From a virus, in the IMG/VR virus record IMGVR_UViG_3300021401_000004, positions 28,961-92,960 of that record: a stretch of 64,000 nucleotides of DNA. One strand, given 5' to 3'. The first letter of the stretch is position 1. Each line of letters starts with the position of its first letter. A program made the position numbers and the translations under genes. The notes under the pieces were generated by a model. The model was given only the letters and a program-made list of their open reading frames with translations, did no database searches and was not told where the DNA came from. Below are positions 2,097 to 30,910 of the stretch, one piece after another.

Positions 2097-4726
2097 ATGG
2101 GCTATAGCCCGAGTTCTAATAACCAGTCAAACCTGCCTCAGTCCACGGTTCGGTACTACGACAAAAAGTTCCGTTAAATGGTTCTTGCGGAATAGGGTCG
2201 AAGCTCGTGTGCCAAGAAACAGGAGAACCTGAAGGCACAGACGCCGTTCGTCGCGTGTTCCGAACGTTTGGACCTCCCGATGAAATCTGGTAACCAGTAC
2301 AACTTGTATCAAACAGGTACCCTCATCGCGTAAGCGATGTTGAATAACGTGGCTATATCGGGGGATAACTCATTGAGTCAATCCCGAGGGAAGTCTAAGT
2401 GACCCCGTAGAGACTACACGCCGCGCCCCGGAAACGGGTGATGATATAGTCCGCACTTACGGGCGACCGTAAGAGGTTGGCAGTTATACTTGCCCGCCGC
2501 AACAAAATGGATGTATGTTCCCCTCGCGGCCAACACCAGTCAGACGACTGAAGGAACTGTTGGCGCGGGCGTGAGCGTATCTGTACTGAATACCTCGGCG
2601 ACAATCGGTGAGTTGATTTGCGGCTCACCATAAACTTGACTATATCGGTGGACATCTGCTATAATGGCAGACAATACCGAGCCAAGACTAACCGTTTTAC
2701 AAGCCTATTAAATAATCCAAAAGGATGGCTAGAATGTCAGACAAATCAAAATATTCGTACCTCGCTGGAATTATTGATGGCGAGGGCTGTTTTTGCATCG
2801 GAGCTGGACGACGCCAGAAGTGGGGCGTCATCAACTACAATCCGCAGATATTGGTTGGCAATACGGACCATAGATTGACTGCGTGGCTGAAGGAAAACTT
2901 CGGGGGCGTAACTTTTACGCAACGCCCGAATAACCCGAGATGCAAAATTCCGTCTATTTGGCGGTTGTCGAAAAAGAAGGACATGGAACTTCTTATTTTG
3001 GCAATCATGCCTTATCTGATAATCAAAAAAGAGCGTGCAATTGTCTTCCTAGAATTTCTACGGCTTCCGCCGACAATGAATCCCGAACGTCGGGAAGAGT
3101 TGTGGAAACAGTTGTCGATCTTGAATAAACGGGGAGTAGACGTAGAGACTAATACGTCAAGCAGTTCGGAAAACGAACTGAAGATAGAGTCCGAACTTAC
3201 TGGTGACAGTAAGAGTGGCCCTGTGGTGACACAGGAGACGGCGACGCCCGTAATGACTGCCTAAAAACAGCATTCCCAAAACACAGTTGACGCTGATTAC
3301 GCTAACTTCTCCAGCCTCAGTCTGGCGACCGCAATCGACAACACTGTCGAAAACGTCGCCCGAGAGATGGCCTACCGTCTCGGCGAGTCCCTGTCCGCTT
3401 TGGTTCGTGCAACTGCGGACGGCGCGAACTCCGTGGATTCTTCGGTCCTGACCAAACTGGCCGCGACCTCGACCACGAGCTTCACGACTCTCTCCTTGAC
3501 CTACATCCGAAACGCCGTGCAGTCACTTGCTGGGCGTTCGGTTCGCCCGTTTGACGAAGCTTCCAAAAACTTTGCTGGTGTGATCCATTAGGTTGCGGGC
3601 AACCGCATAAGGGTGGATATAAAATTCTCTCTGATTGACTCGAACGCTGAGATGCCAACGAGGGGCAAGTCAATATAGTTCCATAATGGAAACATATTGA
3701 CAGCCTGAACGACTAAGCGAGAGAACGTTCATGTCGCATGAACGATGCAATAGTCTGAACAGTACGGAAAATGAACGTACTGAAGTAAGCAGAAATGACT
3801 TGCTCGGGCAAATCGCCCGTAACAACTTGCCTTTTGCACTCGGCGATGTTTTGGCGGACAACTCGAACGATTCGCCAATCGATATCCTGAAGCGTACTCC
3901 GCAGGGTTACAGCCGCCTGGATGAAATCATCTCGACGGACTTGACCGAAGTCATTGAAATCCCGACTTCCGGCGTAAGCTTCTTCCAGTCAAACTTGGTG
4001 ACCACCAGCCCGAACTACAATCCGGGAACTGGCGCGGTTACGGGCTTGACTGCTCTGCGTACGTATATCTTCGGGCGCGATGGCATTTTCTCCATCAACC
4101 TCGGAGCGCAGGGTGACACCGGATACGGTGACGGTGAGTGGCGGAATATCCGTTTTTCATAATGTTTAGCGGATACAAAATTTCTTCTAATTGACTCGAA
4201 CCCTGGAATGGCAACGAGGCGCAAGTCCAGAAAACGGACAGCGTGAGAGACTAAACGAAGAAACGCCTTCGGGCGATGCAATAGTCCGGTCTTCACAGAA
4301 CAACAAATGTGAAGAGGCAAGCAGAAATGACTTGCCCGTCGAAAGACGTAACACAGACGTGCAACATCGTGCAAAACGCCGAGCCTTCGGTTGCGGACCC
4401 CAGCGGTCTAATTCCGGGGTGGACCAGCTATCGTGTTCACTTCACGACCAGCTTGGGTCCGGATACTACAATCCGTATGTCATGGTAAAGTCCTAATGCG
4501 GATTCAAAACTCAATCTTATTGACTTGAAACCTGAAATGGCAACAAGGCGGAACCCTTCGGGGACCGTGAGAGACTAAGCGATTGAGCGCCTTCGGGCGA
4601 TGCGATAGTCCGAACATACGGAAAACGAACCGTATGAGGTTGGCAGAAATGACCAATCTCAACAGCTTGTAAGTTGTTGATAACAAGGCGATTAGGGAAA
4701 TTGACGCGGCCAGCGCAATCAGCTAA
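2097..4726 (+). CDS. Major capsid protein (N4 gp56-like), 7 exons, 347 aa after splicing
   Basis: Exons 2097-2174, 2223-2309, 2511-2613, 3290-3588, 3830-4153, 4360-4476 and 4691-4726 total 1044 nt in one frame: MGYSPSS..YYDKKFR|ENLKAQTPF..LPMKSGNQYNLY|MYVPL..IGE|YADY..GVIH|PFALGD..NIR|CNIVQN..DPSGLIPGWTSY..TIR|IREIDAASAIS*. Every junction is exon-U / intron-G. Confidence 0.85.
2175..2222 (+). other. 48-nt group-I-like mini-intron lacking a catalytic core
   Basis: Begins with an in-frame TAA. The guide GTTCTT-GCGGAA pairs with 5' exon TTCCGT (U.G at the junction) and 3' exon GAGAAC. Ends in G. No P3-P8. Confidence 0.7.
2310..2510 (+). mobile_element. Group I intron 2 (201 nt, no ORF)
   Basis: P1 GTATC/GGTAC, P3 CGTGGC/GCCGCG, P7 AGAGACTA (2409) with GATATAGTCC (2443), P8 GAAA loop, P9 GCGA loop, terminal G. 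Confidence 0.88.
2614..3289 (+). mobile_element. Group I intron 3 (676 nt) with LAGLIDADG ORF
   Basis: P1 GGTGAGT/GCTCACC, AGAGACTA at 3144, GATAGAGTCC at 3183, terminal G3289. Removal restores E-Y-A-D-Y. Confidence 0.9.
2725..3264 (+). CDS. Single-motif LAGLIDADG homing endonuclease (intron-encoded)
   Basis: YLAGIIDGEGCF, FGG and PYLIIKKERA motifs. Confidence 0.9.
   Translation: MARMSDKSKYSYLAGIIDGEGCFCIGAGRRQKWGVINYNPQILVGNTDHRLTAWLKENFGGVTFTQRPNNPRCKIPSIWRLSKKKDMELLILAIMPYLIIKKERAIVFLEFLRLPPTMNPERREELWKQLSILNKRGVDVETNTSSSSENELKIESELTGDSKSGPVVTQETATPVMTA
3589..3829 (+). mobile_element. Group I intron 4 (241 nt)
   Basis: P1 ATCCAT/GTGGAT, P10 AAGG/CCTT, P3 TTCTCTC/GAGAGAA, P7 GACTA/TAGTC. 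Removal restores VIH-PF. Confidence 0.9.
4154..4359 (+). mobile_element. Group I intron 5 (206 nt)
   Basis: P1 TATCCGT/GCGGATA, P3 TTTCTTC/GAAGAAA, P7 AGAGACTA..AATAGTCC, terminal G4359. Confidence 0.9.
4477..4690 (+). mobile_element. Group I intron 6 (214 nt)
   Basis: P1 AATCCGT/GCGGATT, P10 CCTAAT/ATTAGG, P3 CTCAATC/GATTGAG, P7 AGAGACTA..GATAGTCC, terminal G4690. Confidence 0.9.
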
Positions 4727-4763: not shown

Positions 4764-4851
4764 GATACTAGCTCCGTGAAATTCGGAGCGACAATTGGAA
4801 GGGTCGGGTGCCCAATCACTCGGCCCAACCAGTTCCCTATTGGGAGGGAAT

Positions 4852-5565
4852 GTGGACAAAGGAAATATAGTAGGTCAGAGGTACGAGCGGCTCGAAGTCC
4901 TGATGCCCGCTTGGATAAACGAAAAACAAAATCAAGTTTGGTTGTGCGTCTGCGATTGCGGGCAAATTCGGTTTATCACCACTGCCGTTTGGAATGCCCA
5001 AAGTCGCAAAAGTTGCGGGTGTTTGCGTCGGGAAGTTTCTCGCGGGCAAACAACGGCCATGAATCTGGCACGGGCGGGCCAACCGCGATCCGCCAAAGGC
5101 AAGATAGCGTCTCAAGCAGCTTGCAAGAAAATGAACGCGGTGCGGCACTCTCACGCCCGCCACGTTCTGATTAAAGTAGACCCCGAGCGTTTGGTGGGCG
5201 AATGTGATGTCTGCGGGGCCGTTCCACTCAAGATAATGAAGCACCGCGTCGGCAATCAACGCGACCAATATCTATGTTGGGTGGGTTCTTTGCGGGTTCA
5301 CAACGAATACGCGAATGCGAGAGTCCGTTATCCGAACCACGCCTTGGAAATGTTTAACAAACAGGCCAACGCCTGCGCGGTTTGCGACGGGCAGATGATT
5401 AGGGGCGATGGTTTGGCAAATGACGGTATGGTTCTAGATCACTGCCACACGACGGGCTATATACGCGGGTTTACGCATCAACGATGCAACAAAGGGCTTG
5501 CAATGTTTCTTGATCGTCCGGAAGTATTCCGCAAAGCCGCCGATTACTTGGAAAGAAATCGCTAG
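4852..5565 (+). CDS. Free-standing endonuclease VII-family homing endonuclease
   Basis: GTG start after GGAGGG. N-terminal WLCVCDCG..KSCGC module; C-terminal DHCHTTG.IRG...RCNKGL. Confidence 0.8.
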   Translation: MDKGNIVGQRYERLEVLMPAWINEKQNQVWLCVCDCGQIRFITTAVWNAQSRKSCGCLRREVSRGQTTAMNLARAGQPRSAKGKIASQAACKKMNAVRHSHARHVLIKVDPERLVGECDVCGAVPLKIMKHRVGNQRDQYLCWVGSLRVHNEYANARVRYPNHALEMFNKQANACAVCDGQMIRGDGLANDGMVLDHCHTTGYIRGFTHQRCNKGLAMFLDRPEVFRKAADYLERNR

Positions 5566-6021: not shown

Positions 6022-6040
6022 GGCCCGCACAATTAAGTTT

Positions 6041-6360
6041 GCTCAGTTGAAGTGCTGTTAAGACGTGCAAGACCGGGCTTCGAAGCCCGCAGGTCCACCA
6101 GATCGCCCGTTAAGTCGGTCGGAAAACTTGACTTCGGGTTTGGCTGCCAATATTTGCAAACTGGTAATGGGCGACGTGACGGGCCTGAAATGGATTCGAT
6201 TGCGCGGACGAGATAGCATGGATGGGCACGGATGCTGTGGCCACGTTACGGACACAGAAACAACAACCGCTACGACTAAACCTCGGGCGTTTGCGGCAGC
6301 CGCTTAATAAACGGCCCGCACGGAGTCAGCCGGGAACTCTGGAAAATAATCCCGGCAACT
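6041..6360 (+). ncRNA. ssrA: Circularly permuted (two-piece) tmRNA
   Basis: Acceptor piece ends T-arm-CAGGTCCACCA at 6100. Coding piece starts GGGCCTGAAATGGATTCGA at 6181. 7-bp acceptor stem with G3.U70. Tag frame 6269-6307 reads ATTKPRAFAAAA*. Outer ends are approximate. Confidence 0.85.
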
Positions 6361-28717: not shown

Positions 28718-30910
28718 ATGGCAGACGATCAAGTTCAACCGACAACTTCGGATAGCACGGAAACTCAGGTTACTCCTGCGGAAGTTCAGTCTTCTACGGG
28801 CGACCAGCCCAGTCCGCAAAACGGGCAAGCACCGCCCGATACTAGCAACTTACCTGTTAGCGGGCAAACCCCTATTCAGCCTCCGCAACCCGCCGATCCT
28901 CGGGATTCTCATCCCGCCGTTCAGCAGGCGGGGATCATGCGTCGCATAGGAGAAACGATTGCGGGCGGCCCGAGAATCAAAACGACGATTGACCCAAACA
29001 CGGGCGTAGTCACCCGTGAAAAACAGCCGCTCGACACAAAGGACATTCTTGTCGGCGCTTTGGCTAACATCCTCGGTGGCTTCGGGCAAGTTGCGAGCAA
29101 CGCCTCCGCCCGCCAAGCCGGACGGTCGCCCGCGCCCATTCAGCCTTTACCGACTCAAGTCGCGCAGCAGAAACAGGCCCAGCAGTCGCAAGCTGATTTC
29201 GAGCAAGAGCAGCAGACCAAAATCCAGAAGGCAAAAGTCCTTCAGGCGAACATGGAAGCCATGCGCTCGGCCTACGCTGCGGGCAAAGAAGATGACGAAG
29301 CCAAAGACTCGATTGTCTCGAATCACTCGGATGATCTGGAGAATTGGAAGAACTCGGGCGCAGTTGAAGCCTCGAATATTCCGTCAAACGAATTGATGCA
29401 GAAGGGGTTTGACAAGACTAAGTACGTCGCTATCCCCGACGGAAAAGTTCCAGTATTCGGGCCTAACGGTCAACGGGCGACCGACAATAACGGCGTTCCG
29501 CTGTCTCAGCTTACGTATTCGGTTGTGGACGGCACGACTCAAACGCCCCTAACGCAAGCAAAGTACAACCAGTTGGCGAAATACGGACTGATGTCGGCGA
29601 AGCAGGGGTTTAATTTGCCCGAAGGCGCGACGATTACCTCGGCATCGCTCGCCTTGATGAACCACAAACTGGACCTGATCCAACAGACGCAGCGGGAACT
29701 TGACGATGTTCACGATCAAGTAGGTGGGGATAAAGTCGATCTCGCGGAGCAGATCAAGAAGAACCCGCAAGTATTGTCCGCGATTGAGAAGTTCCATAAT
29801 GATGCTGCGAGCGCCGATCCGAACGATCAGATAAAGTCGATCCAGAAGAATCACCCACAGGCTGCGGGCATCATGTCGGAGTTGTTCGGGCAAGAGAATC
29901 TTGAGAAATTGTCGAATCAAAAAGCTGCTGATCTCGCGAAAGCGAAGGAAAAAGGGGTAACGGAAGGCCGCCTTGAAGCTGAAGGTGACAAGATGGATGA
30001 CAACAAAGCCGCCAGCATCTTGTCCGATCCCAAGTCTACGCCCCAAGATAAGCAGCGGGCGCAGGATTTCCTGAAAATAAAGGCCAATACCAAGTTTACG
30101 GATAAAGAACAGGAAATCAACGCTCAACGGGCGATTGAGGACAAAGATTTATCCACGGCGGCTAAAAACATTGTTTCGGGCAATCTCGCGCAAATCCGCG
30201 ATTTAGTCTCCTTCCGGGGGGATCAGAAAACCCGTGTCTATAACATGATCGCGGACGAGGCGAAGGCTCAAGGGAAAGACCCGAAGGATTATTCGCCCGC
30301 GAAACTCGAAGCTAAAACTAAAGTTCTTAACGACTTCAGCGACGGGAAAGCCGCTGACAGTATCGTGTCGTTCAACACGTTCCTCGGGCACGCGAATGAC
30401 GCTTTGTCTGCTACGGGCGCGATGCGCGGGCAGACGGGCAGCCCGCTTATCAACCGTCCTCTGAATTGGATCAGAAAGAACGCCGCCAACGACACGAACT
30501 TCCAAGCGTTCCAAACCGCTCTCGTTCCTGTACGGAAAGAGTACATGAGTTTCCTGAACAACAATCGGGCGGAGCACGAAGGCGATATCAAGGTAATGGA
30601 AACCGTGCTAAACGACGATTCTACGCCCGCCCAGATCGAATCAGCCTTAAAGAAACTCGGAGAAAGCGGCGATATCCGCCTTGCCGAGCTTGGCCGGAAA
30701 TACTCGAACACGATGGGCGACGAATATCCAAGTCTTCTGGCTCCCGAAAGCAAACAAGCTTTGCAGAGGATGGGCGTTCAGAGCAGAACTGTTACGAGCA
30801 CGAAGGACAAGCCCGTTACGCCCCCGAAGCCCGCACAAAACTTCGCGGCAACTAGCTCGGATGGAAAATGGGGTTACGACGGCAAGCAATGGGTAGCGAC
30901 GGGCAAATAA
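28718..30910 (+). CDS. Putative internal virion (ejection) protein
   Basis: 730 aa, helical, Q/K/D-rich. Confidence 0.6.
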   Translation: MADDQVQPTTSDSTETQVTPAEVQSSTGDQPSPQNGQAPPDTSNLPVSGQTPIQPPQPADPRDSHPAVQQAGIMRRIGETIAGGPRIKTTIDPNTGVVTREKQPLDTKDILVGALANILGGFGQVASNASARQAGRSPAPIQPLPTQVAQQKQAQQSQADFEQEQQTKIQKAKVLQANMEAMRSAYAAGKEDDEAKDSIVSNHSDDLENWKNSGAVEASNIPSNELMQKGFDKTKYVAIPDGKVPVFGPNGQRATDNNGVPLSQLTYSVVDGTTQTPLTQAKYNQLAKYGLMSAKQGFNLPEGATITSASLALMNHKLDLIQQTQRELDDVHDQVGGDKVDLAEQIKKNPQVLSAIEKFHNDAASADPNDQIKSIQKNHPQAAGIMSELFGQENLEKLSNQKAADLAKAKEKGVTEGRLEAEGDKMDDNKAASILSDPKSTPQDKQRAQDFLKIKANTKFTDKEQEINAQRAIEDKDLSTAAKNIVSGNLAQIRDLVSFRGDQKTRVYNMIADEAKAQGKDPKDYSPAKLEAKTKVLNDFSDGKAADSIVSFNTFLGHANDALSATGAMRGQTGSPLINRPLNWIRKNAANDTNFQAFQTALVPVRKEYMSFLNNNRAEHEGDIKVMETVLNDDSTPAQIESALKKLGESGDIRLAELGRKYSNTMGDEYPSLLAPESKQALQRMGVQSRTVTSTKDKPVTPPKPAQNFAATSSDGKWGYDGKQWVATGK

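Follow-up and report, generated by a model that had tools for sequence, protein, structure and literature searches.

We analysed a 64,000-nucleotide (nt) stretch of viral DNA, hereafter the window (positions 28,961 to 92,960 of IMG/VR record IMGVR_UViG_3300021401_000004), in which the capsid gene is interrupted by five full group I introns and, closest to its start, by an insert of 48 nt. The virus record is 92,960 bp long with a CheckV completeness of 100%, and no second, intact capsid gene was found in it. Among cultured phages its nearest relative is Tunturi_3, a Tunturiibacter phage with an uninterrupted capsid gene; it is a podovirus of 97.6 kb that infects an acidobacterium (Tunturiibacter psychrotolerans X5P2). 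Below we describe the insert and a class of similar short inserts ("minis") in related phages, and we discuss how such an element might leave the capsid transcript.

The 48-nt insert in the capsid gene

The capsid open reading frame (ORF) starts at ATG 2097, runs into a TAA stop at 2175-2177 and regains its frame at GAG 2223. An in-frame TAG at 2193 is a second stop within the insert, which spans 2175-2222 and ends in ...AAACAG. The frame translates as MGYSPSSNNQSNLPQSTVRYYDKKFR up to the stop, and from 2223 it reads ENLKAQTPFVACSERLDLP... In Tunturi_3 the head protein is continuous over the site (...FYDKKFRENLKAQTPFVACSERLDLP...). All 29 uninterrupted IMG/VR homologues read YDK(K/R)FRENLK there, with the F and the R invariant, and 65 more uninterrupted metagenome loci also cover the site. 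In a DNA alignment to L006, the closest uninterrupted gene, the window was longer by exactly 48 nt, which fall after nt 78 of the reference and before nt 79 (site 78). We concluded that the 48 nt are an insert, because the uninterrupted homologues read straight over the site. A sequence-only reading of this DNA had the frame break off at TAA 2175 and resume at 2223, and it proposed looking for an empty site, KKFR followed directly by ENLK; the boundaries were confirmed to the base by the reading frame, the homologues and the L006 alignment, and the empty site exists in the 29 homologues and in Tunturi_3. When 2175-2222 and the five full introns (Table 1) were removed in silico, a 1044-nt ORF was restored whose 347-amino-acid product equals the L006 protein in length and shares 96.3% identity with it.

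A second contig (L001), which is without two of the window's introns, contains the identical 48 nt, and a third contig (L003) has a diverged 51-nt version at the same site. The mini is thus not an assembly artefact. When site 78 was searched for a full intron or for additional variants, a pattern scan of IMG/VR gave just L001 and L003, and a metagenome scan gave mostly uninterrupted genes; the full-length intron that the sequence-only reading had thought might occupy this exact site in a homologue was found in neither scan. Between the exons of the window and L003, both with a mini at site 78, synonymous divergence (dS) was ~0.9 and the ratio of nonsynonymous to synonymous divergence (dN/dS) was 0.03. 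In the two minis themselves the guide is conserved and the tails are almost unrelated. With dN/dS at ~0.03 between lineages that both carry the mini, the capsid gene stays functional while the mini is in place, and strong purifying selection in its presence means that the insert must be neutralised. That is, the need to remove the 48 nt for capsid synthesis, which had been argued earlier from the essential role of the capsid, is strongly supported by a sole capsid gene in a complete genome and by its low dN/dS.

The insert has the anatomy of a group I splicing substrate. The last 5' exon base is U2174 and the last insert base is G2222. An internal guide pairs with the end of the 5' exon to form a 7-bp P1, with the U.G wobble at the junction, and a second 7-bp helix, P10, is formed with the start of the 3' exon (coordinates in Table 1). 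The P10 and P1 guides directly adjoin, forming one contiguous internal guide, and none of 2000 shuffles of the insert equalled this P1 and P10. Only ~29 nt are left 3' of the guide. No catalytic core (P3-P8) and no guanosine site in P7 were found in the insert, for which Rfam gave no match even at E<=10, with introns 2-5 detected; at most, 10 nt of it recall P4-J4/5-P5 of type-B introns. The minimum-energy fold consists of two hairpins, P1 and a stem enclosing the 3' splice site, and its stability is modest (z = -1.8). A tail helix (2208-2213/2234-2239) is part of that fold, but 426 of 2000 shuffles matched it and the pairing is not kept in L003; nor does any hairpin in the tail of the window's mini recur in that of L003. 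The 48-nt insert therefore keeps the substrate parts of a group I intron, and the P3-P9 catalytic core is gone. Pairing, shuffles and Rfam thus bear out strongly the earlier description of a P1 with U.G, an adjacent P10 and a terminal G with no core.

Table 1. Features of the capsid gene in window coordinates
Feature	Position	Strand	Details
Capsid exon 1	2097..2174	+	26 codons; matches N-terminus of Tunturi_3 and L006 capsid proteins
Last 7 nt of exon 1	2168-2174	+	5' strand of mini-intron P1
Core-less mini-intron	2175..2222	+	48 nt; UAA first, terminal G2222; no Rfam match
P10 guide GGUUCUU	2180..2186	+	pairs with 3' exon GAGAACC 2223-2229
P1 guide GCGGAAU	2187..2193	+	pairs with GUUCCGU 2168-2174; G2187.U2174 at 5' splice site
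Candidate tail strand UGUGCC	2208..2213	+	predicted to pair with 3' exon GGCACA 2234-2239
Capsid exon 2	2223..2309	+	87 nt, ENLK...NQYNLY; spacer (tether) between mini-intron and intron 2
Intron 2	2310..2510	+	201 nt; group I, no ORF, complete core; Rfam RF00028 51.4 bits
Capsid exon 3	2511..2613	+	from alignment to uninterrupted gene
Intron 3	2614..3289	+	676 nt; group I; Rfam 33.6 bits
LAGLIDADG endonuclease ORF in intron 3	2725-3264	+	Pfam PF00961, 23.8 bits
Capsid exon 4	3290..3588	+	from alignment to uninterrupted gene
Intron 4	3589..3829	+	241 nt; type B, no ORF; Rfam 20.9 bits
Capsid exon 5	3830..4153	+	part of the restored ORF
Intron 5	4154..4359	+	206 nt; type B; Rfam 15.6 bits; P1 = AUCCGU/GCGGAU
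Capsid exon 6	4360..4476	+	from alignment to uninterrupted gene
Intron 6	4477..4690	+	214 nt; type B; P1 = AAUCCGU/GCGGAUU; sequence similar to introns 4 and 5
Capsid exon 7	4691..4726	+	IREIDAASAIS and stop; matches C-terminus of Tunturi_3 and L006

Among the full introns, intron 2 scored above the RF00028 gathering score, and it too is preceded by an exon U and ends in G. The LAGLIDADG ORF of intron 3 ends ~25 nt short of the 3' splice site. UCCGU ends the 5' exons of the mini, intron 5 and intron 6 (2169-2174, 4149-4153 and 4472-4476), and GCGGA is found in all three guides. Because these motifs are common to all three, their P1 helices are nearly interchangeable, which could permit cross-use or exon skipping.

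Mini-inserts in related capsid genes

Capsid genes of related phages contain a whole class of such elements. We counted 27 mini-inserts of 32-98 nt, at ~10 sites, in 22 of 36 interrupted capsid gene architectures. Insert lengths in these genes are bimodal, with minis of 32-98 nt and full introns of 181-1042 nt. Detailed scoring covered 18 distinct minis (33-98 nt); the others raise the total to 27. Every one of the 18 was preceded by an exon U, ended in G and carried a contiguous P10 and P1 guide that fits its own exon context. The P1 guide is initiated by G and forms 6-8 bp, and the P10 guide, immediately before it, forms 4-8 bp. Depending on the mini, this anatomy was equalled by 0-31 of 2000 shuffles. 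At sites 66, 92 and 161, full-length introns occur in other phages.

The sequence-only reading had proposed looking for P1/P10 covariation among mini-inserts, and covariation was indeed found, in the sister families at sites 940 and 161. At site 940, where all eight variants are minis, the P1 pair at position -2 is C-G, A-U or U-A and the one at -5 either C-G or U-A. The P10 pair at +5 is A-U, U-A or G-C. These pair changes follow synonymous changes in the exon (Pro, Gly and Thr codons). At site 161, 176 of 176 pair cells in the eight variants (L021, L023, L047, L164, L175, L178, L183 and L186) are standard pairs. A third, covarying helix of 6 bp joins the tail of the site-161 mini to nt 9-14 of the 3' exon. 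Two of its positions are doubly changed (C-G/U-A/A-U and A-U/G-C); its covariation score was reached in 0 of 500 shuffles, and slid controls were 16-53% paired. Nucleotides 1-14 of the 3' exon at this site are thus fully paired, through P10 and the third helix, to two separate parts of the mini. We concluded that the minis are maintained by selection on their pairings.

The site-940 minis (62-98 nt) also contain a conserved GC-rich hairpin that doubles as a 7-codon ORF, ATG GCN GCN GTN GCN GGN CGN stop, encoding MAAVAGR or MSATAGC (examples: L048:6362-6448, L016:910-1005, L069:764-882, L021:6362-6484 and L141:2238-2356). Differences within it lie nearly all at third codon positions. It continues the reading frame of the capsid exon upstream of it, so that unspliced site-940 mRNA would encode a capsid protein with an alternative C-terminal tail.

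Candidate sources of the catalytic core

A full group I intron lies 20-107 nt downstream of each of the 27 minis. Equally close upstream, a full intron was found for only 5 of 27, and of the 68 full introns just 3 are followed by another at such a short distance (Fisher p ~1e-20, uncorrected for relatedness; ~10 sites are independent). For the mini of the window this neighbour is intron 2, which begins 87 nt downstream and has a complete core (RF00028, 51.4 bits). The pair, a mini at site 78 and a 201-nt intron at site 165, 87 nt apart, is kept in L001 and L003, and in the surveyed relatives the 201-nt intron at site 165 was never observed without the mini. Every group I core that could be detected in the genome falls within the capsid gene, and no free-standing or other group I core was found outside it. 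Across the class, the downstream intron may be of either sequence type (A or B). Group I ribozymes recognise P1 through backbone contacts and the wobble pair, and a helper of either type fits this mode of recognition. A cis mechanism would predict such a bias towards downstream neighbours, because an upstream intron would probably leave the transcript before the mini had been transcribed, whereas a downstream core would be expected to fold beside a mini already formed.

We lean, with some caution, towards the view that the 48 nt are a group I derivative that is not autonomous and depends, in cis, on the core of the next intron for its splicing. On this account the capsid pre-mRNA would lose the insert in the usual two-step group I reaction, for which intron 2 (2310-2510), on the same transcript, would lend the active site. 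In the first step, guanosine bound in P7 of intron 2 would attack the 5' splice site of the mini. In the second step, the terminal G of the mini would occupy the same pocket, P10 would align exon 2 and the exons would be ligated; intron 2 would afterwards splice itself out. The expected junction is AAGTTCCGT joined directly to GAGAACCTG. The sequence-only reading had likewise invoked a borrowed ribozyme and named any of introns 2-6 as its source. Borrowing is backed by association, and the association, with a full intron downstream in all 27 cases, is a strong one. The positional rule points to intron 2, the next intron downstream and acting in cis, as the most likely helper, rather than to any of introns 2-6. 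The same reading's suggestion of a control point for capsid synthesis is conjecture.

Several points weigh against this account. The downstream-neighbour rule is an association, and mini, exon and full intron appear to move jointly as a cassette, so that co-mobility could add to the linkage, although co-mobility does not explain why the neighbour is always downstream. Site 78 has two sequence variants, and the P1/P10 covariation comes from sister families and not from site 78 itself. No pairing that tethers the mini to intron 2 was found. Lastly, we know of no natural group I core that has been demonstrated to act on a separate substrate made up of P1, P10 and a terminal G.

Three more specific links between mini and helper were considered and rejected. 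A possible tether from the mini to intron 2, GGGUC/GACCC, seemed to covary, but P6 of intron 2 itself accounts for this. A "P3 strand swap" between a remnant in the mini and the helper was dropped, as the remnant's type (A or B) fails to agree with that of the intron downstream. A match between mini and helper in the bases before the terminal G was uninformative, the tails being A/U-rich.

The same chemistry could be provided in trans, with any excised intron RNA (2-6) docking the preformed P1 of the mini, so that position in the transcript would be irrelevant; excised intron RNAs would be abundant late in infection. The five full introns on the same transcript are in keeping with this possibility, as are the UCCGU/GCGGA motifs common to the P1 helices of the mini and introns 5 and 6 and the middle part of the mini, which is like type-B core sequence and unlike intron 2. 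However, a helper acting in trans predicts neither a full intron within 107 nt downstream of 27 of 27 minis nor the asymmetry between upstream and downstream. The kinetics of the Tetrahymena ribozyme also indicate that a P1 duplex docks poorly in trans. We consider this alternative unlikely.

Harris and Rogers reported that a 67-nt fungal intron, which has P1, P7 and P10 and also forms a helix with the 3' exon, is spliced in vitro and needs ~300 nt of flanking RNA for this (PMC3160393). The mini could by analogy be a minimal self-splicing element that builds its own active site with flanking exon RNA, as claimed for fungal ribosomal DNA (rDNA) introns of 56-81 nt; the phage minis do have P1 and P10, and site 161 adds a covarying 3' exon helix. 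Yet only ~29 nt follow the guide here and members of the class go down to 32-34 nt. There is no conserved P7-like guanosine pocket, the window and L003 minis have almost unrelated tails, and the obligatory downstream full intron would be left unexplained. We judge self-splicing to be quite improbable.

Removal by proteins or by another RNA-processing route, for example an endonuclease and an RNA ligase that recognise a two-hairpin fold, seems about as improbable as self-splicing. The minimum-energy fold does have two hairpins, with the splice sites in or beside their stems. On the other hand, the U.G pair, the terminal G and the covarying P10 are needs of group I chemistry, and a protein-based route gives no reason to keep them at 10 sites.

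Still less probable is that the mini is not removed at all, being a dead deletion relic in a gene that is broken or whose protein starts downstream. Its short stretches resembling core remnants would fit an origin by deletion. However, this is the sole capsid gene of a complete genome, with exon 1 conserved and dN/dS at 0.03; the mini occurs in three contigs and guides covary in sister families; and a downstream start cannot rescue the minis at sites 898-940, which lie close to the gene's 3' end.

Hopping of ribosomes over the 48 nt is the least credible reading. It would recall the bypass of phage T4 gene 60, a stop-containing coding gap of ~50 nt (50 nt in T4) with a hairpin at its start, and here too a UAA directly follows the last sense codon, which lies inside a hairpin (2168-2193); but that hairpin is accounted for by P1, the mini has no matched take-off and landing codons and obeys group I splice-site rules, no landing codon restores ...FR followed by EN... 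(CGU to CGA at 2199 adds 7 residues, and AAG to AAG replaces the invariant FR), an in-frame matched codon exists in just 3 of 18 minis, and P10, the terminal G, the exon U and the covariation would all go unexplained.

Mobility, precedents and implications

Near-identical phage pairs differ by a whole block of mini, micro-exon and full intron. Contigs L017 and L018 have flanks that are 99.9-100% identical, and L018 is without the mini and two introns; their three mismatches all fall in the exon that separates these introns. The uninterrupted L018, 2.2 kb long, might have been assembled from spliced mRNA, but the clustered exon mismatches point to an intron-less DNA allele. Between the L052 group and L065 the backbone is 98-99% identical, whereas the 52-nt exon between mini and intron is 77% identical, and L019 versus L115 show a similar pattern. 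In these pairs the exon between the elements is divergent, which is the signature of cassette transfer by co-conversion, and the mini appears to travel together with its micro-exon and full intron in a single cassette.

Short core-like pieces offer a weak indication of origin. The middle of the window mini, GUCGAAGCUCG, and the corresponding GGAAGCUGAA of L003 resemble the 5' strand of P4-J4/5-P5 of type-B introns, and the L003 piece is an exact 10-mer common to several type-B introns (E ~0.8 each). Site-940 minis retain an CUAUAUCUGG-like piece that is typical of type-A introns. These resemblances hint, weakly, that minis may have arisen from full introns by deletion of P4/P5 through P9.

The capsid gene is flanked by further features, all on the + strand. 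A non-coding leader of ~235 nt (1860-2096) precedes the capsid ATG; it is 74-89% identical in relatives, is conserved also in relatives with uninterrupted capsid genes and has no Rfam match. About 70 nt past the capsid stop, a 256-amino-acid ORF (4795-5565) encodes an Endonuclease VII/HNH-type domain (PF02945, E 9.5e-13) and is a candidate free-standing homing endonuclease beside an intron-rich gene. A circularly permuted (two-piece) transfer-messenger RNA gene follows at 6040-6307 (Rfam RF04321, 65.8 bits; gathering score 47), for which ARAGORN gave no call.

Taken as a whole, the comparisons tip somewhat in favour of natural two-part group I splicing in the soil phages of the Tunturi_3 group. 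Core-less "satellite" introns, each reduced to a P1/P10 guide and a terminal G, would be spliced in cis by the next downstream ribozyme, and mini, micro-exon and helper would spread as one mobile cassette.

Known phage group I introns are like the mini in having a P1 with a U.G wobble, an adjacent P10 and a terminal G, in residing in an essential phage gene and in occurring several to a gene; their neighbouring introns can also interact, through exon skipping. Unlike them, the mini has no recognisable P3-P9 core, and hence presumably neither a guanosine site nor a capacity for self-splicing. The smallest self-splicing group I introns are ~200 nt long, compared with the 48 nt of the mini, and we know of no case in which a core processes a separate, complete substrate intron. 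For phage Twort, PMC3073962 cites group I ribozymes that skip exons between neighbouring introns, and in Cluster J mycobacteriophages the introns are full-size only (PMC3706429). No published description of core-less group I introns in phages was found in the literature, and introns are not mentioned in the Tunturi phage paper.

Systems in which part or all of the catalytic RNA is supplied from elsewhere provide a closer parallel. The group III introns of Euglena plastids are degenerate, non-autonomous group II introns. They belong to another class (group II/III) than the phage elements. Trans-spliced organellar group I introns are split and work with helper RNAs (PMC3873408), but their pieces reassemble into one core, whereas in the phages the core would be borrowed from a second, complete intron.

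The fungal precedent invoked by the sequence-only reading is real. Small "degenerate" group I introns are present in fungal nuclear small-subunit rDNA, among them the 67-nt PaSSU intron of Phialophora and those of Porpidia and Arthonia (Harris and Rogers 2011, PMC3160393). Like the phage minis they are tens of nt long and keep P1 and P10. They also form a helix with the 3' exon ("PM"), and they are thought to be derived from large introns by deletion and to need flanking RNA (PMC3160393). The third helix at site 161, the one phage family in which covariation proves such a pairing, resembles "PM"; in the window's mini the equivalent is a predicted pairing. Unlike the phage minis they lie in ribosomal RNA, essentially at one site and in one clade, with a P7 and self-splicing reported and a terminal U in PaSSU (PMC3160393). 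The phage minis, by comparison, are in a protein-coding gene at ~10 sites, can measure as little as 32-34 nt, have G as their last base and always have a full intron downstream.

The engineered spliceozyme, a Tetrahymena ribozyme that removes a 100-nt intron from an mRNA in Escherichia coli (Amini and Muller 2015, PMC4509937), is alike in that a group I core excises an internal segment without a core of its own, and it demonstrates that the chemistry is feasible in bacteria. It differs in being artificial, in carrying the guides on the ribozyme and not on the removed segment, and in acting in trans (PMC4509937).

By definition, group I introns carry their own ribozyme. A satellite intron would show a core working on a separate substrate in nature, and if the account given here is true it would represent a group I counterpart of the Euglena group III introns, with a single natural ribozyme core serving several introns. 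It would also mark a step from the self-splicing intron towards a shared, spliceosome-like catalyst, which has so far only been engineered. In practical terms, inserts of 32-98 nt break the capsid ORFs in many soil-phage genomes and are invisible to gene callers and to Rfam, and major structural genes are mis-annotated as a result.

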